From NCBI GenBank assembly GCA_963842945.1, contig CAWJIM010000016.1, forward strand, positions 96,001 through 160,000: a stretch of DNA of 64,000 bases. Reading direction: 5' to 3'. This stretch comes from an uncultured Gemmatimonadales bacterium. GTDB lineage: Bacteria > Gemmatimonadota > Gemmatimonadetes > Gemmatimonadales > GWC2-71-9. Both the position numbers and the translations under genes were made by a program. This document shows, one piece after another, positions 6,180 through 12,577 of this stretch. Position 1 is the stretch's first letter, and every line of letters begins with the position of its first letter. The notes under the pieces were generated by a model, which had not been told where the DNA came from, searched no databases, and was given only the letters and a program-made list of their open reading frames with translations.

Positions 6180-7469
6180 ATGGCTCAACCTACGCGAATC
6201 CTCGTGCTTGGCGGCGGGTTCGGAGGAGTGGCCACCGTCCGCCGTCTCGAGCGGCTCTGCCGGGGCCGGGTCCCGGTGGACATCACGCTGGTAAGCCGGA
6301 ACAACTTCTTCGTGCTCACCCCGCTTCTGTTCGAGGCGTGTTCGGGCCGGCTGGAGCTACGGCACTGCGCCCAGCCCATCCGGCCCGCCTTGAAACGCGC
6401 CCGATTCCTGGAGGCGAGGGTGGAGGGAGTGGATGTCGAGCGGCGGCAGGTCCGGGCAGTGGCCGGCGACGGGACCGTCTACGATTTGCCCTACGATCAC
6501 CTTGTCGTCGCACTTGGCGCCGATACCAATGAGGCACTGATACCGGGCTCCGCCACCTCGCTCACCTTCAAGACCATGTCCGATGCTCTTCTGCTGCGGA
6601 ATCACCTAATCGAACAGCTCGAGCGCGCCGACGCCACCGCAGATGCAGCGAACCGGCGCCGGTGTCTCACCGTGATCATCATCGGAGGCGGTCTGGTGGG
6701 CATGGAGCTCCTGGGCGAGCTCACCGCCTTTGCCGACGACGTGCTACGCTACTATCCCCGGATTTCCCGAAACGAGCTTCGGTTTCATCTCTTCGAGGCA
6801 GGTCCGCGCACCTTGCCGGAGATCGATCACAAGCTCGCGCAGGTGGCCTCACGGGTGCTGATCAAGCGTGGCGCCGACATTCGCGTGTCCGCCCCGGTGC
6901 GCTCGATCGAGCCGGGACGAGTCCACCTTCCCGACCAGACATTCGAGGCCGCGACGGTTGTGGTCGCCACCGGTATCGTGCCCAGTGCCGCGACTTCGGC
7001 GATCCCGGTGGAGCACGATCAACGAGGAAGAATCGTGGTCGACGCCGAGATGCGGAGCCGCAGTCACCCGCAGGTATGGGCACTGGGTGACTGCGCTGCA
7101 ATCCCCGATCCACAGGGCCGGCCTTATCCGGCACTGGCGCAGCACGCCATTCGGGAGGCTCGACGCCTGGCGGAGAACGTGGCTGCGGTGCTCCAGGGCA
7201 AGAATCCGAAGCCGTTCGTCTTTCGATCGTTGGGGACGATGGCGTCGCTGGGGCATTCCCGGGCGGTGGCCCAGGTGTTTGGGATGCGGTTGAAGGGGTT
7301 TCCGGCCTGGTGGCTCCGGCGAACGTACTATCTGATGCAGATGCCGCGCTGGGATCGCCGGCTTCGCATCGTGCTCGACTGGACCGTCGCACTCTTCTTC
7401 CGACCCGACATCACCAAGGTGGACATCACCAGCGAGCGGCCACTGCCTCAACTCTCCCGGGAGACCTGA
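6180..7469 (+). CDS. ndh: type II NADH dehydrogenase-family FAD oxidoreductase
   Basis: LVLGGGFGG, YDHLVVALG, IIGGGLVGMELLGEL, WALGDCA, LAQHA, GTMASLG. Confidence 0.85.
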   Translation: MAQPTRILVLGGGFGGVATVRRLERLCRGRVPVDITLVSRNNFFVLTPLLFEACSGRLELRHCAQPIRPALKRARFLEARVEGVDVERRQVRAVAGDGTVYDLPYDHLVVALGADTNEALIPGSATSLTFKTMSDALLLRNHLIEQLERADATADAANRRRCLTVIIIGGGLVGMELLGELTAFADDVLRYYPRISRNELRFHLFEAGPRTLPEIDHKLAQVASRVLIKRGADIRVSAPVRSIEPGRVHLPDQTFEAATVVVATGIVPSAATSAIPVEHDQRGRIVVDAEMRSRSHPQVWALGDCAAIPDPQGRPYPALAQHAIREARRLAENVAAVLQGKNPKPFVFRSLGTMASLGHSRAVAQVFGMRLKGFPAWWLRRTYYLMQMPRWDRRLRIVLDWTVALFFRPDITKVDITSERPLPQLSRET

Positions 7470-7470
7470 C

Positions 7471-8112
7471 GTGTCCAAGCTGCGCCTTCGCATTTCCCTA
7501 TCGCTGGACGGCTACGTCGCCGGCCCCCACCAGAGCGTTGACGAACCGCTGGGCCAAGGCGGGGAGGAGCTCCACCAGTGGATCTTTCCGCTGGCTGCCT
7601 GGCGAAAGCCGCATGGTCTGGAGGGCGGGAAGACCGACGAGAGCACGCCGGTGGTGGAGGAGGAGCTGAGCAACATCGGGGCGACCATCATGGGCCGAAA
7701 CATGTTCGGCGGCCACCCCGGCCCCTGGAACCCGGCTGAGCCATGGAACGGCTGGTGGGGAACCAAACCGCCGTTCCATCATCCGGTGTTCGTGCTGACC
7801 CACCACACCCGGGCTCCCCTCACTCTGGAGGGTGGGACCGTGTTCACCTTCGTCACCGAGGGCATCGAGCAGGCCTATGACCTGGCCCGGCGCGCCGCCA
7901 AGGGGAAGGACGTGGCTCTGGCGGGAGGGGCCAACATCGCCCAGCAGTATCTCAATGCCGGCCTGGTGGACGAGATGCAGCTGCACATCGCGCCCATCTT
8001 GCTGGGCTCCGGAGAGCGGCTGTTCGACGGGGTGCAGGATCTGCATGGCCTGACGCTGGTGAAGACGGTAGGCGCGCCGAACGTCACCCACCTCAAGTTC
8101 GTCCGAGCGTGA
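7471..8112 (+). CDS. dihydrofolate reductase/RibD C-terminal family protein
   Basis: SLSLDGYVAGP, IMGRNMF, VFVLTH, GGANIAQQYLNAGLVDEMQLHIAPILLGSGERLF. Confidence 0.9.
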   Translation: MSKLRLRISLSLDGYVAGPHQSVDEPLGQGGEELHQWIFPLAAWRKPHGLEGGKTDESTPVVEEELSNIGATIMGRNMFGGHPGPWNPAEPWNGWWGTKPPFHHPVFVLTHHTRAPLTLEGGTVFTFVTEGIEQAYDLARRAAKGKDVALAGGANIAQQYLNAGLVDEMQLHIAPILLGSGERLFDGVQDLHGLTLVKTVGAPNVTHLKFVRA

Positions 8113-8639
8113 AGGCCTCCGTTTTCATCGGCATCAGCCTCGACGGCTTCATCGCTCGAGCCGACGGTGGCCTGGATTGGCTCCCGGCGGATGGCGGCGA
8201 GGAACACGGCTACGAAACCTTCATAGCGACGGTGGACGCGCTGGTCATCGGCCGGAAAACGTATGAAACGGTCCTCGCCTTCGATGCCTGGCCCTACGGC
8301 GAGAAGCCGGTCTACGTGCTGAGCAGTGGATCCCTGGAGCCTCCGCCTTCTGGCGCCAGAATGGAACAGCTCTCGGGCGACCCCCAAAGCATCGTTCGCC
8401 AGCTTGAACAACGCGGCGTCGGCCATATTTACGTGGATGGGGGGATCACCATTCAAGGTTTTCTCCGGGCCGGCCTGATTCAGCGGCTGATCATAACCCG
8501 GGTCCCTGTGCTGTTGGGGGAGGGCATTCCACTCTTTGGACCGCTGCCGCACGATGTTCGGTTGGAGCACGTCGCCACTCGGCAATACCGAACCGGCCTG
8601 GTACAAAGTGAATACCTAGTCTTGCCGTCCCCGCGCTAA
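8109..8639 (+). CDS. dihydrofolate reductase/RibD C-terminal family protein
   Basis: GISLDGFIARADGGLDWL, IGRKTYE, YVDGG, PVLLGEGIPLF. Confidence 0.9.
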   Translation: MKASVFIGISLDGFIARADGGLDWLPADGGEEHGYETFIATVDALVIGRKTYETVLAFDAWPYGEKPVYVLSSGSLEPPPSGARMEQLSGDPQSIVRQLEQRGVGHIYVDGGITIQGFLRAGLIQRLIITRVPVLLGEGIPLFGPLPHDVRLEHVATRQYRTGLVQSEYLVLPSPR

Positions 8640-8650
8640 ATTCACACTAT
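8622..8650 (+). promoter_or_regulatory. candidate sigma70 promoter TTGCCG-N17-CACTAT
   Basis: Hexamers at 8622-8627 and 8645-8650 with 17-bp spacing, directly ahead of the structured leader. Confidence 0.45.
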
Positions 8651-8656
8651 AGACCT

Positions 8657-8800
8657 CGGCGGATGATCCGCGCCCAACCTCGCCGGCCCGGCCCCAGCCC
8701 GGGCCCTCGTGAGGCAAAGGGGGGCACACTCCCGGATCCGTTCTGATCGAGCCTTTGGCGAGCCACTGGCGTCGCCGCTGGGGGGCAGCGCCCGTGGCCT
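8657..8800 (+). ncRNA. candidate structured RNA leader (unnamed multi-stem motif)
   Basis: Nested helices read by eye: CGGCG 8657-61/CGCCG 8773-77; CTCGCC 8679-84/GGCGAG 8757-62; GGCCCGG 8685-91/CCGGGCC 8699-705; AAAGG 8716-20/CCTTT 8752-56; loop CCCCAGC complementary to GCTGGGG 8777-83. Confidence 0.55.
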
Positions 8801-8817
8801 GACCAGAGGACCACGCC

Positions 8818-9492
8818 GTGCCTACCGATAAAGACTTCAAGCGCCTGGTTCGCGGGCGCATGCGGAAAACGGGCGAATCCTACACCGCGGCCCGCGCTCA
8901 ACTCCGGAAACAAAAGCCAGTCAGTTCAGCGGCACCGCGGCCGGCACAGTATGCGGCCATCGCGGGCAAGAGCGACGCACTCATCAAGGAGAGAACCGGG
9001 TGCACCTGGGAGCGCTGGGTCAAGGCGCTCGACCGGGCCAAGGCGCACAGCTGGCCGCACCGGGATATCGCCAGGTATGTCATGGAGAAGTACAAGATCC
9101 CCGGCTGGTGGGCCCAGACGGTGACGGTGGGCTACGAGCGGATCAAAGGGTTACGCGCCGTGGGCCAGCGCCGGGACGGCACTTTCGAGGCTAATAAGAG
9201 CAAGACATTCCCGGTACCGTTGAATCGGTTGTATCAGGCGTTCGCGGATCAGCGCACCCGGGCCCGCTGGCTTTCCGGGATTGACCTGACGGTCCGCACC
9301 GCCACTCGGGACAAGTCGATGCGGATCACCTGGCCGGACCGGACGTCGCTCGAGGTCGGTTTCATGAGCAAGGGAGCAAAGAAGAGCCAGGTCGCGCTGC
9401 AACACGGGAAGCTGGCGGACCGAGAGGCGGCAGCGCGGATGAAGGAGTACTGGGCGGAGCGGCTTGCTGTGCTGGAGCAAGTCATCGGCTGA
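8818..9492 (+). CDS. hypothetical protein: basic N-terminal 'KRLVRGRMRKTGESYTAAR' module + DUF4287-like region + SRPBCC/AHSA1-like C-terminus
   Basis: 224 aa. ERTGCTWERWVKALD..PHRDIARYV..GWWAQTVTVGYE, then FEANKSKTFPVPLNRLYQAF..KSQVALQHGKL..MKEYWAERL. SD-like AGAGGA upstream. Confidence 0.7.
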   Translation: MPTDKDFKRLVRGRMRKTGESYTAARAQLRKQKPVSSAAPRPAQYAAIAGKSDALIKERTGCTWERWVKALDRAKAHSWPHRDIARYVMEKYKIPGWWAQTVTVGYERIKGLRAVGQRRDGTFEANKSKTFPVPLNRLYQAFADQRTRARWLSGIDLTVRTATRDKSMRITWPDRTSLEVGFMSKGAKKSQVALQHGKLADREAAARMKEYWAERLAVLEQVIG

Positions 9493-9508: not shown

Positions 9509-9542
9509 GAGATGGGGGTGGGCCAATGGCCCACCCCATCTC
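9509..9542. terminator. strong hairpin between convergent genes (probable bidirectional terminator)
   Basis: GAGATGGGG(G)TGGGCC-AAT-GGCCCACCCCATCTC inverted repeat. No U-tract. Confidence 0.6.
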
Positions 9543-9550
9543 ATCTCCTG

Positions 9551-10300
9551 CTACTTCTGCTTAATCCACGCCGGCGTGTGATACGTCAGCGGGTCGTACA
9601 GATCCGGTTGAAGCTTCACGTCGGCCTGAATGTCCCGGTACTTCTCCCGCTGTAGCTCCTTCCCGTCGACCTTGATCACGCAGGTCGGCGCGATCCATCC
9701 CTTGCCCAACGGCTGGTAGTCCTCGAAGGTGATGTCGAGAATGGCAGGCTTCTCGGTGGGCTTCTTCGGGTTCTTGTGCTCCTCGAACAGCCGCACGAAG
9801 AGCAGCCGGTCCTGCTCGATCCAGAACTGATCGGTAGCCGTGTCGCCCTTCTCCGCCCCGACGACCCACACCTTGGTCCCTCTCCAGCTGTCCTCCCGGA
9901 TCTTGCTCAGGTCCACATGAGCGGCCTTGAGCTGAGCGATCGTGGTCTGCGGTGGCTGGCCGTACACATCGAAGCCGAGGGTCATGAGGAGGTTCCGGTC
10001 CTCTCTGGCTCCCACCCGCTTGCCTCCCTTGAACACAATGGCGGAGTCGCCCAGGTACATGAACGCGTTCATGCTGTCGAGTGGCGCGATGTCTATGCGA
10101 AGTTTCCCGGGAATTTCCCCCGCCTCATACCAGGTTTCCGCGGGCCTATCAGGAAAAGTGGTAGTCTGGATGAAAGTCAGGTTGTGGTACCACTTGCCGG
10201 CGTAGCGCTCATGCATCTGGCGGACCAGCTCCTCACCGGATTTGGGCGCGGGATGGTTGCCAAGCAACACGAGGGGGACCAGCAGGGCGAACAGTCGCAC
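9551..10300 (-). CDS. secreted hypothetical protein, LolA-like/lipoprotein-sorting fold likely
   Basis: Signal peptide VRLFALLVPLVLLG, MHERYAGKWYHNLTFIQTT, GKLRIDI, QFWIEQDRLLFVR, FEDYQPLGKGWIAP. Confidence 0.6.
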   Translation of the reverse strand: MRLFALLVPLVLLGNHPAPKSGEELVRQMHERYAGKWYHNLTFIQTTTFPDRPAETWYEAGEIPGKLRIDIAPLDSMNAFMYLGDSAIVFKGGKRVGAREDRNLLMTLGFDVYGQPPQTTIAQLKAAHVDLSKIREDSWRGTKVWVVGAEKGDTATDQFWIEQDRLLFVRLFEEHKNPKKPTEKPAILDITFEDYQPLGKGWIAPTCVIKVDGKELQREKYRDIQADVKLQPDLYDPLTYHTPAWIKQK

Positions 10301-10387
10301 GCAGCCTCCTAAGAGTTGTGTCGTTTCAAGGGCGAACAATGGCCCTACGCCGCCGGATAGTTGAGAGTTTCCGCGGGTTTGCCCACC

Positions 10388-12577
10388 CTAGTTCTGCGCC
10401 GCAGCGCCCCCCGGGTGATACGACCGTTCCGTGTGGCCCTGGAACTGCCCGGGATAGAAGTAGACCTCGCGCAGGTTGCCGCCGGCGTACCGTTCCGCCT
10501 GGTCATTGAAATGCCGCGAGCGAGGATCGCCGCTCTCACCTCCCGGGCTTACCGCCCTGGCCCGGACGCTGTCCTTTCCGAATTCCACCACCGCAACGAA
10601 CGTGTTGCCGAAGGTTCCGTATCGGCGCTTGGTTCCGGGGTACGTCTTGGCGCCGTAGGCCGCCAGGGACCCCCACTGCGCCGACGTGAACGGCACAGGG
10701 GTGCTCGGCGCCGAGTCGCGGAACGTCTGCTCGACATCACCAGTGAGCCGTTGGAAACGATTGATCTCGCCCCAAGGAGTCTTCCAGCTTCCGAAATCAC
10801 GGGTAAGGCGATCCTGCGCTGCCTGAAGAGCAGCCAGAGCCTGCGGAGGGCGGACCCGTGCCGTCATGTACTCATAGGTAGTCATGCCCGCATCCGCCGC
10901 GTATGCCTGTACCGACTGGGCCAGCGCCTCACCCCAGTAGACCGCCAGCGCCGTCGTCACCGAAGCTGCGCTCCAGCGATAGTTCCACTTCCTGAGAGAG
11001 TCTATCGGCTCCGCCAGCCGCCGCTTGAGCGTGTCCCCGGCTGCCGGGATCGAGTCGTAAGCCGCAATCAGTGCCGGCACCAGCCGGGCAAATGCCGGGA
11101 GGTAGCTGTCGAATGCCGCATCCTGCAGCCGATCGAGGCTGAAGTCCTTCTTTCCATCCAGCACCATGATGGCGTGGAGGCCCCGAGGGCTCTCTCCGGC
11201 GTTGTCCATGTAGGCGGGGAACTTCTTCTGCTCCGGGCTGTAGCGGCCCGCGGCTGAATAGGGCCAGTTGTTCACATTCTGAATCCAGCCGTTGGGCGGG
11301 TCGATGACGTGCGGACTGTCCTCGACGCCGTGCACTCCCTTCCATTCAGTAGCCGGATTGCTTCCGTCCACCGGCAGATCCCAATTGAACCGAACGTCCC
11401 GCCGGGGCACAAACTGGGGATGGAAATATGCGATGTGCCCGTCTGCGTCGGCGTAGACCGTGTTGTTGGACGAGTTCGCGTGCAACTCCATAACCTTGCG
11501 GTACTCGGCGAGCGAGCGGGCCTTGGTGCGTAGATACGACTGGCTCAGCGCCTCGATCGGCTTCTGCATCAGCCGCACACTGATCCACGCATCCTCTGCC
11601 GCTCGAACAATCGGGCCGTGATGGCTTCGGTAGACCGTGAACGAGCGTGACTGCATGCCTCCTGGTGTGCGGTAGGGTACCGTGATCCGCTGGCTCACCA
11701 GCGGGAGCTCCTTCCCACCATACCGATAAAAGAGCCGATCCCCCCGGCGTATCACCGTCTCGGCGTACTCATCAATAGCGTCAGCGCCGGTGGATGTATG
11801 CATCCAGCCCAGCCGGTCGTTGAAGCCCTGATAGATGAAGAACTGGCCCCAGGTTGCCGCCCCATAGGCGTTGAGCCCCTCATCGCTGGTCATCTGCAGC
11901 TCGGAGCGAAAGAAGAACGTGGTGTGGGGGTTGATCAGCAGGAGGGCCCTGTGATTCACCGTGTTGGCGGGGGCGATCGCGAAGCCGTTCGACTCGGATT
12001 TCAGGGTGGCCCGGCGGGTCGAATCCAGCGGAGAAGGGCGGCTCGCGGTGTCGCCGTAGAACTTTCGCAAGTCATCGAGGTCTATGCTCTCGATGTCGCC
12101 GCCGATGCTCCCCTCGGTGAAGCTGAGCGCCATCCAGGGCTCGAACCGCTCGATCACCCTGGGTTTTACCGCCGGGTGAGTGTGCAGGTAGAAATTCAGC
12201 CCGTCGGCCCAGGCGTTCATCAGGCGCTGAAGCCATTCAGGACTTCGGGTGTAGGTCGCCCGCAGGCTGTCGGGATCGATGAACAGCTTCATCCGTAGGT
12301 CCTGCCAGACCGCACTCTCGCCGGCGGCTTCGCCCAGCCTTCCGAGTGCGTTCAGATAATTGATCTCGACCCGATTGAAGTCGTCCTCCGCCTGGGCGTA
12401 GATCATCCCGAACACGGCCTCGGCGTCGGTCTTCCCGCGGATATGGGCAATGCCCCACTCGTCCCGGGTGATGCTGACTGCCCTGGCCTCTGCTACCCAG
12501 CGCGCCAGCGAGGAATCGCCCTGGGCGGGCGCCTGGATCAGGGAAATTGCGGACAACACAACTGGAAAGATTTGCAT
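10388..12577 (-). CDS. penicillin acylase family (Ntn-hydrolase) amidase
   Basis: ITRDEWGIAHIRG, YAQAEDDF, beta-chain start SNGFAIAP..LLINPH, GGESGDP.SRHFNDQA. Confidence 0.92.
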   Translation of the reverse strand: MQIFPVVLSAISLIQAPAQGDSSLARWVAEARAVSITRDEWGIAHIRGKTDAEAVFGMIYAQAEDDFNRVEINYLNALGRLGEAAGESAVWQDLRMKLFIDPDSLRATYTRSPEWLQRLMNAWADGLNFYLHTHPAVKPRVIERFEPWMALSFTEGSIGGDIESIDLDDLRKFYGDTASRPSPLDSTRRATLKSESNGFAIAPANTVNHRALLLINPHTTFFFRSELQMTSDEGLNAYGAATWGQFFIYQGFNDRLGWMHTSTGADAIDEYAETVIRRGDRLFYRYGGKELPLVSQRITVPYRTPGGMQSRSFTVYRSHHGPIVRAAEDAWISVRLMQKPIEALSQSYLRTKARSLAEYRKVMELHANSSNNTVYADADGHIAYFHPQFVPRRDVRFNWDLPVDGSNPATEWKGVHGVEDSPHVIDPPNGWIQNVNNWPYSAAGRYSPEQKKFPAYMDNAGESPRGLHAIMVLDGKKDFSLDRLQDAAFDSYLPAFARLVPALIAAYDSIPAAGDTLKRRLAEPIDSLRKWNYRWSAASVTTALAVYWGEALAQSVQAYAADAGMTTYEYMTARVRPPQALAALQAAQDRLTRDFGSWKTPWGEINRFQRLTGDVEQTFRDSAPSTPVPFTSAQWGSLAAYGAKTYPGTKRRYGTFGNTFVAVVEFGKDSVRARAVSPGGESGDPRSRHFNDQAERYAGGNLREVYFYPGQFQGHTERSYHPGGAAAQN

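Follow-up and report, generated by a model that had tools for sequence, protein, structure and literature searches.

Ribosomal protein S15 has an autogenous operator pseudoknot, and the SAM-II and preQ1-II riboswitches are pseudoknots that sequester the Shine-Dalgarno (SD) sequence. The arginine-rich-motif peptides of lambda N and HIV Tat bind small RNA hairpins, boxB and TAR respectively, and act on transcription antitermination or activation. Ribosomal protein L20 is reported to act on the leader pseudoknot of rpmI-rplT, an autogenous translational operator (PMC1888825). Here we describe a system related to each of these by likeness, found in a 64,000-nucleotide (nt) stretch of DNA from an uncultured Gemmatimonadales bacterium (contig CAWJIM010000016.1, positions 96,001 to 160,000; hereafter the window, whose numbering we use). 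It consists of a structured leader RNA of ~165 nt and, directly behind it, the beginning of a gene for a 224-residue protein with a short basic N-terminal module. Comparison of many such loci shows, at the level of sequence, that the leader and the first ~30 codons form one cassette, which is kept as a unit in front of unrelated proteins.

Like the L20 and S15 leaders, this RNA is pseudoknotted, includes or abuts the ribosome-binding site (RBS) and precedes the gene for a basic, putative binder, with control that would fall at initiation. The leader overlaps its own RBS through a covarying anti-SD:SD helix, as an autogenous leader of the ribosomal-protein type should. Unlike in those leaders, the putative binder is a 30-residue module on unrelated proteins, RNA and module move as a cassette, there is no known rRNA or other primary target to mimic, and no Rfam ribosomal leader matches. 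With SAM-II and preQ1-II the leader shares a compact, knotted, aptamer-like fold and an SD within conserved structure, but it is larger (~165 nt), has an incoherent regulon and an obligate link to a peptide module, and is matched by no covariance model. As in lambda N and Tat, the putative RNA-recognizing part is a short, basic, helical N-terminal peptide; unlike in them, this part is a conserved two-helix unit with an invariant T-G-E-S-Y, and the RNA is the large leader of its own mRNA. Judged by analogy, the leader appears to work like an autogenous operator and to look like an SD-sequestering riboswitch, while being a member of neither group.

The fold of the leader was established by comparison. 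A single-sequence fold is uninformative at 74% G+C: its minimum free energy of -87.7 kcal/mol is set against a shuffle mean of -82.1 (z -1.16), and 24 of 200 shuffles are equally good. Since this is chance level, evidence that reaches beyond G+C content has to be comparative. A first alignment (A1) holds 128 distinct leaders, 103 selected by a sequence pattern and 25 by their proteins; ten pattern loci that failed the first peptide regular expression were left out and examined separately. In A1, 88.8% of cells are paired, 31 of 48 pairs covary and 408 cells are compensatory, with 0 of 500 shuffles reaching this and slid controls at 39-57%. From a covariance model built first (R1), we went on to gather divergent actinobacterial copies and to a broader model (R2) with a corrected P1 register. 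The R2 matches were realigned as A5, with 99 rows, among them a decayed copy and a reverse-strand match that do not represent intact leaders. Here 91.7% of cells are paired, 42 of 48 pairs covary, no shuffle in 500 equals this, slid controls give 39-52%, and compensatory cells number 895 against a shuffled mean of 323. On this evidence from aligned sequences the leader is a conserved, covarying RNA. Its elements in the window are listed here, with paired cells and covarying pairs taken from A5.

8656-8820, plus strand: entire leader RNA, P1 foot through start codon; covariance model R1, 145 bits, E 1.2e-31 (G000:C16:104656-104820)
8658-8661 with 8671-8674, plus strand: P1 hairpin, GGCG/CGCC, loop 8662-8670; 98.2% paired, 2/4 pairs covary, nearly invariant
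8665-8669 with 8734-8738, plus strand: PKa, long-range pairing of the P1 loop, GAUCC/GGAUC; 90.2% paired, 5/5 pairs covary
8678-8681 with 8711-8714, plus strand: P2 outer helix, CCUC/GAGG; 99.7% paired, 3/4 pairs covary
8685-8691 with 8699-8705, plus strand: P2 inner 7-bp hairpin, GGCCCGG/CCGGGCC, loop CCCCAGC 8692-8698; 90.0% paired, 7/7 pairs covary
8692-8698 with 8777-8783, plus strand: PKb, 7-bp kissing loop between the P2 loop CCCCAGC and the P5 loop GCUGGGG; 98.3% paired, 6/7 pairs covary
8715-8719, plus strand: CAAAG, highly conserved unpaired junction joining P2 to P3; candidate binding surface together with CAA at 8675-8677
8720-8724 with 8729-8733, plus strand: P3 hairpin, GGGGG/CUCCC, loop CACA; 96.1% paired, 3/5 pairs covary
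8752-8758 with 8803-8809, plus strand: P4, anti-SD CCUUUGG with the SD strand CCAGAGG; 84.8% paired, 7/7 pairs covary
8762-8766 with 8794-8798 and 8768-8771 with 8789-8792, plus strand: P5, inside P4, GCCAC/GUGGC and GGCG/CGCC; 90.7% and 75.6% paired, 9/9 pairs covary
8805-8820, plus strand: SD AGAGGA (8805-8810) and start codon GTG (8818-8820)

The leader has three 5′ hairpins (P1, P2 and P3), P4 enclosing P5, and two long-range loop pairings, and R1 finds it at this site alone in its own 4.3-Mb assembly, which holds one cassette. Compensatory exchange is frequent in both loop pairings, for example AU 37/UA 29/GC 9 and CG 44/UA 37 in PKa and CG 59/AU 31 and AU 48/CG 33/GC 12 in PKb (all A5). 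PKa was also recovered independently by RNAalifold, and the P2 loop variants of some lineages (CUCACGC, CCCGCGC, CCCACGC, CCCCGAC and CCUCAGC) have a matching partner strand each time. Neither PKa nor PKb was ever a pair in the covariance models, so the alignment was not fitted to either. The P1 loop of the window copy is one base longer than in most leaders, and the P1 register first read off that copy (41.5% paired in A1, and 38.4%) was rejected and replaced in R2 and A5.

The covariation shows the 5′ domain (P1, P2, P3 and PKa) and the 3′ domain (P4 and P5) of the predicted fold to dock via the 7-bp kissing loop. Folded by itself, the 3′ domain (8752-8809) reaches -36.8 kcal/mol (z -3.43; 1 of 200 shuffles does as well), and the SD lies in its closing helix. 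As the sole structure backed by covariation pairs the SD, the RBS is buried in it, and because all covarying elements are mutually compatible, the conserved state is the SD-closed one. The conserved core is less variable than the helices. Its CAAAG junction is invariant in A1, occurs in 25 of 25 protein-selected rows and reads CGAAG in some actinobacterial copies. The invariance of core and P3 in A1 is partly by construction, since 103 of the 128 rows were chosen with a pattern containing both; the 25 protein-selected rows carry the same core, and it is the peptide-selected actinobacterial rows that reveal variation in it.

A preliminary description of this DNA had placed a non-coding stretch with an SD region between a promoter-like site and the GTG at 8818, followed by a protein starting MPTDKDFKRLVRGRMRKTGESYTAAR and then a linker, all of which are present. 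Two of its pairings were also right, namely the 7-bp GGCCCGG hairpin (8685-8705) and the CCCCAGC/GCTGGGG loop pairing, listed above as P2 inner and PKb. Its long-range multibranch stems were not borne out: the share of paired cells is 45% for the closing CGGCG/CGCCG, 71% for CGCC(C)A/TGGCG, 45% for CTCGCC/GGCGAG and 52.2% for the three jointly, within the 34-53% of slid controls. The AAAGG/CCTTT helix is not supported either, being formable in 91.5% with no compensatory change and broken in 38 of the 128 A1 leaders by a U-to-C change on its 3′ side. That change (CCUUUG to CCUUCG) is compensated in the SD strand (CGAAGG; UA 78, CG 24), the upstream CAAAGG being invariant, and AAAGG/CCTTT may be kept solely as a transient, SD-open pairing. 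The hairpin at 8762-8798, ahead of the SD, is real (it is P5), but it does not compete with the pseudoknot as had been thought; it displays GCUGGGG in its own loop, so the contact is a kissing loop and not competition. A switch is not supported either, as the covariation-backed structure has the SD paired and no alternative fold covaries. The local P1 hairpin, the pairing of the P1 loop (GAUCC/GGAUC) and the anti-SD:SD helix had been missed, and about half of the multibranch secondary structure was wrong.

The cassette is widely distributed. In the 260 nt upstream of 25 homologues that start with the module, long blocks are shared with the window leader in 25 of 25 cases, and the stems between these blocks differ in compensatory fashion. 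A 23-nt core pattern, searched blind to the protein in contigs of one genome per species, found at least 120 stretches; those listed are assigned by record title to Gemmatimonadota (70), Acidobacteriota (35), Planctomycetota (4), Krumholzibacteriota (3), Actinomycetota (2), Dormiibacterota (2), Chloroflexota (2) and Cyanobacteriota (1), with one unplaced. Read from these sequence matches, the RNA family is spread over at least eight phyla. The window protein has 5644 relatives at E <= 0.001, the named ones being metagenome-assembled genomes of Gemmatimonadales, and is matched in 35 of 201 sampled genomes of the same phylum. A plasmid collection gave no match.

With Rfam 15 at permissive thresholds, the best hits in 8400-9100 of the window were 13.8-15.2 bits (E 0.9-9.5), far under gathering, and Rfam run on 13 loci, canonical as well as actinobacterial variants, gave no match on the leader. 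A literature search found no paper on the RNA or the module, with a description in a subscription journal or a supplementary table still possible, and broader searches brought up only general motif surveys and ribosomal-protein leaders.

RNA and peptide are coupled in whichever direction the search is made. Starting from the RNA, the module profile matches after 117 of the 120 core-pattern loci listed, at 92-127 nt (median 105) from the pattern start; the other three are a contig end (L056), a decayed copy with an internal duplication (L069) and a fragment (L070). R2 has 31 matches in 151 Actinomycetota genomes, 29 of them before independently found modules, and of the two without a module one lacks the 3′ half and in the other the 5′ half is fused into a BtrH_N reading frame. 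Starting from the peptide, the leader is found at 25 of 25 module genes of Gemmatimonadota and, in other phyla, at all 9 module genes of five genomes (1-3 per genome), where the model match ends at the start codon. Among 301 Actinomycetota genomes sampled, 42 have the module, at 63 places, of which 62 were examined and one lies at a contig edge; 61 of these 62 module genes carry the RNA (R1 finds it at L155, at 29 of 29 and at 27 of 32 loci, and R2 adds four). As a negative control, five homologue loci without the module (L023, L026, L027, L028 and L029) gave no RNA match better than E 0.33. The counts include loci from unpublished genomes, namely G057 (L016), G206 (L204), G223 (L180), G253 (L185), G287 (L184, L246), G325 (L182), G379 (L183) and G444 (L179), and without these the peptide-first figures are 54 of 55 for Actinomycetota and 24 of 24 for Gemmatimonadota. 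Since the pairing holds whatever cargo follows, RNA and peptide probably act as a single transferable control unit.

Three decayed cassettes were seen. One, with an internal duplication, has no module (L069:1445-1609), one lacks the 3′ half and the module (L246, G287:C202:3734-3919), and in one the 5′ half of the leader runs straight into the BtrH_N reading frame (L250, G327:C186:70349-70422); cassettes are therefore also lost by deletion and not only gained. Some actinobacterial genomes hold several modules, three each in G313, G341, G420, G433 and G498 and four in G381. In the displayed copies of G341, G498 and G433, the kissing-loop sequences and the peptide variants differ within the genome.

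In the window, the 224-residue open reading frame (ORF) starts with the GTG at 8818, downstream of the stop of a RibD_C-type gene (8109-8639), and the leader lies in between. The first residues are MPTDKDFKRLVRGRMRKTGESYTAARAQLRKQK, and the gene divides as follows.

8818-9492, plus strand: whole gene, 224 residues; module, linker, helical domain 42-109 (DUF4287-like) and SRPBCC/AHSA1-like domain 123-223
8818-8910, plus strand: N-terminal module, residues 1-31; helices 4-18 and 22-31 with the turn T-G-E-S between them
8911-8940, plus strand: low-complexity linker, residues 32-41; disordered, block predicted local distance difference test (pLDDT) score 66

AlphaFold2, run on 94 homologues, gave a pLDDT of 92.6 and a predicted template modeling score (pTM) of 0.71, with block pLDDT values of 88 and 87 for the module helices. 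On this model, the module is a basic, Arg/Lys-rich two-helix unit on a flexible linker, and the linker varies in length and sequence among relatives. In an alignment of 42 module sequences (A2), M1, D6, K8, R12, R14, M15, T18, G19, E20, Y22 and A25 are invariant. The start codon is ATG in 222 of the 242 module genes found; the window copy has GTG. A profile search of the module against PDB sequences had a best match at E 1.7, and the Atlas gave no usable match. A suspected likeness to ribosomal protein bL35 gained no support, as the same PDB profile search returned no bL35 chain at E <= 10.

The rest of the window protein is more easily placed. Its C-terminal alpha/beta domain (123-223) has a START-like fold, with 52 PDB matches by Foldseek at E <= 0.001, led by AHSA1/START-like proteins to E 1.4e-5; the AHSA1 Pfam match itself is at E 0.0016, with 19.1 bits, under the 22.1 cut-off. 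DUF4287 (PF14117) has no match in the window protein at E <= 0.1, and is found in three module-bearing representatives (P0267, P0286 and P0322) at E 1.1e-4 to 3.6e-8, one of them above the cut-off.

That the module heads diverse, unrelated proteins had been put forward in the preliminary description and is now confirmed. Searching 1.84 billion representatives by phmmer, with the 35-residue module as query, turned up 363 proteins of 35-443 residues at E <= 0.001; the best 120 matches of a region-restricted homologue search were orthologues only, and the architectures come from the representative search. A Pfam survey of cargo covered 62 phmmer representatives of at least 130 residues and 26 complete ORFs behind verified leaders. 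Behind verified leaders we found DUF4287-like+SRPBCC, BtrH_N+DUF4872, Clp_N, TPR, WD40, APH kinase, BFN (bifunctional) nuclease, CN hydrolase, SAICAR synthetase, glyoxalase, sigma-70, DUF1835 and DUF2087, with HEAT, DnaJ and a DnaA C-terminal helix-turn-helix further among module proteins. These make at least 13 unrelated architectures behind verified leaders, and not the coherent regulon of a metabolite riboswitch. Of 151 distinct complete ORFs, 115 have the window-type architecture, in a sample biased toward that type by the way loci were collected. Three further points of that description hold too: the leader belongs to no named Rfam family, an alignment of homologue upstream regions, set beforehand as the check, found conserved covarying structure and not a G+C artefact, and the RNA and peptide are portable, each coupled to the other rather than to what follows in the protein.

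The module begins at residue 2-4 in 121 of the 150 representatives listed, and in all six of the later-starting cases that were read, the residues ahead of it proved to be leader translated in frame by the gene caller. Public gene calls often begin far 5′ and translate the leader, with recurring strings such as STPNL and RQRGA, and P0185, P0224, P0233, P0272, P0284 and P0318 have false N-terminal extensions of 50-210 residues.

We propose a model where the module recognizes the folded leader of the mRNA that encodes it, the likely contact being the conserved, unpaired CAA and CAAAG junctions that adjoin the knots. Such binding would govern the start of translation, most likely because it locks the SD-sequestered fold or speeds its formation, and any protein that acquired the cassette would gain negative feedback with it. 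The model is suggested by the module being the only feature common to the regulated genes; by its being basic, helical, loosely tethered and first out of the ribosome near the leader; and by the loss of the leader wherever the module is lost. We give an even chance to autorepression through stabilization of the closed fold. The module emerges first from the ribosome, at only ~200 nt from the leader, so the feedback may take place in cis while translation is under way. It is tempting to go further and imagine that the peptide, on leaving the ribosome, attaches to the leader of that same mRNA, still under translation, and closes the RBS or holds it open, a transferable, self-contained feedback device of an undescribed kind that would work per mRNA; this we put forward tentatively, as a serious possibility that falls short of an even chance. 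If it were true, recipients of the cassette would gain control of their own output by recombination, and the changes seen in a second type of cassette would mark the contact.

In these type 2 cassettes (L170, L173, L175, L181, L184, L159, L187, L194, L219, L220 and L120/L156), which have diverse cargos, the equivalent of position 8677 is G and peptide residue 17 is non-basic; most also have CGAAG (G at 8716) and R at position 21. Across copies, K or R occupies peptide position 17 in 79 of the 80 that have an unpaired A at 8677, and 11 copies combine G there with E, A, T, S, M or D. This has the look of a compensating shift of an RNA-peptide contact. A mutual-information scan and independent contrasts, both of low power, gave 1-2 contrasts for this association on supported branches and 6-8 on all branches, and with only 1-2 on supported branches we take it as a lead and not as evidence.

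Several points weigh against autorepression by the module. Both the binding and the direction of its effect, repression or activation, are putative, and because RNA and module adjoin on the DNA, co-transfer by itself would yield some coupling. Residues 1-40 match no Pfam or NCBIfam family, the module belongs to no known RNA-binding family, and the association of 8677 with position 17 is non-significant once kinship is allowed for. One actinobacterial module gene, L218, has no leader, and its module is the weakest of all and the least typical. On paper, at -36.8 kcal/mol, the SD helix has such stability that it may be closed with or without a partner, in which case a repressor is not obviously needed and an activator is equally conceivable. 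No SD-open alternative covaries, and the sole candidate, CAAAGG/CCUUUG, is the helix broken in 38 of 128 leaders.

An activator is in fact what one alternative supposes: the module would act as a nascent peptide on the ribosome, or would keep the leader open and in this way activate the mRNA in cis, so that the stable SD hairpin makes a default-off gene that turns on after a first, rare round of translation. The stability of the SD helix and the N-terminal place of the module in all cases examined agree with this, but there is no conserved SD-open structure, and known arrest peptides occupy short leader ORFs, unfused to the regulated protein; we see only a slim chance for it. The leader could instead be a riboswitch or sensor for a small molecule, ion or other cellular factor, with the module traveling along for a separate reason, such as a response to the same signal at the protein level. 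Its conserved junctions, its pseudoknots and an SD within a conserved fold do resemble translational riboswitches, as does a core more constant than its helices. However, the cargo genes have no common pathway, so no metabolite is suggested, and the module is all that they have in common; members of the same protein family that lack the module also lack the leader, and no Rfam riboswitch model matches. This makes a sensor unlikely in our view, if worth keeping in mind.

A third reading takes the strict one-to-one cassette and the flexible linker between module and cargo as signs of a durable ribonucleoprotein that serves some end other than feedback, with the module tethering the protein to mRNA, ribosome or cell site, or the RNA serving as a scaffold or chaperone for the cargo. 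Many cargos are indeed protein-interaction or quality-control domains (Clp_N, TPR, WD40, HEAT and DnaJ), but others are ordinary enzymes and one is a sigma factor, and an SD within the conserved fold points to initiation control; such a particle seems to us distinctly improbable. The RNA-derived data yielded no processed or stable piece of the leader, though being contigs they could not reveal one. Finally, the pairing might be an artefact of high G+C with no functional RNA behind it, as the single-sequence fold, no better than shuffles, would allow. That is refuted, to a very near certainty, by the 42 of 48 pairs that covary over eight phyla, a level that none of the 500 shuffles equals and that lies far above the slid controls.

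Transcription of the cassette from a promoter of its own can be sketched from two candidate elements.

8622-8627, plus strand: -35-like hexamer TTGCCG of a candidate promoter
8645-8653, plus strand: -10-like A/T-rich stretch; A/T preference at offsets -24 to -19 (131 upstream sequences)

TTG[AC]C is present in 84 of 131 distinct upstream sequences, spread over five neighboring offsets (-47 to -51, counted from the P1 3′ strand), and is also visible in the 25 orthologous upstream regions. From this motif at a fixed distance, together with the A/T-rich patch, we infer a transcript start at ~8657-8660, the foot of P1. A strict scan of the window region for sigma-70 promoters and for terminators gave no site, and the promoter is for that reason a candidate. 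RNA-derived metatranscriptome contigs from rhizosphere and soil runs overlap 8768-8977, 8789-8991, 8819-9065 and 8904-9103; they show neither start, strand nor level, DNA carry-over is possible, and the parts that they leave uncovered are uninformative. One of them, identical over 210 nt (8768-8977), joins the 3′ part of the leader to the coding region and is consistent with co-transcription of leader and gene. At one orthologous leader (L010), a short tandem repeat, GATAGCT in at least three copies, lies ~200 nt 5′.

Directly 5′ of the cassette are two tandem RibD_C-domain paralogues, 7471-8112 (E 3.9e-19) and 8109-8639 (E 3.8e-18), with a 4-nt overlap, and before them an NDH-2-type pyridine-nucleotide oxidoreductase gene (6180-7469, plus strand). 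On the other side, a gene for a 262-residue protein without a Pfam family (9551-10339, minus strand) converges on the cassette gene, followed by one for a penicillin-amidase family protein (10388-12577, minus strand; E 3.6e-120). A functional link of the cassette to the NDH-2-type, penicillin-amidase or 262-residue neighbors is not evident. Between the stops at 9492 and 9551 there is a near-perfect G+C-rich inverted repeat (9509-9542, arms of 16 and 15 nt, loop of 3 nt), probably a terminator common to both convergent genes; it has no T-run and went unflagged in the terminator scan.

Whatever the mechanism, Rfam lacks a large, doubly knotted class of RNA that occurs in eight phyla or more, and Pfam and NCBIfam lack a 30-residue module. 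There is also a practical problem for annotation, as gene calls often run through the leader, which leaves these proteins with false N-terminal extensions. If the peptide binds the leader, the cassette would be a natural, modular autoregulation tag, in which ~260 nt of DNA give any protein a built-in translational governor, and a ready-made synthetic-biology part for high-G+C bacteria. There is a substantial chance that such portable and possibly co-translational feedback represents a new principle, by which regulation would spread through domain shuffling.

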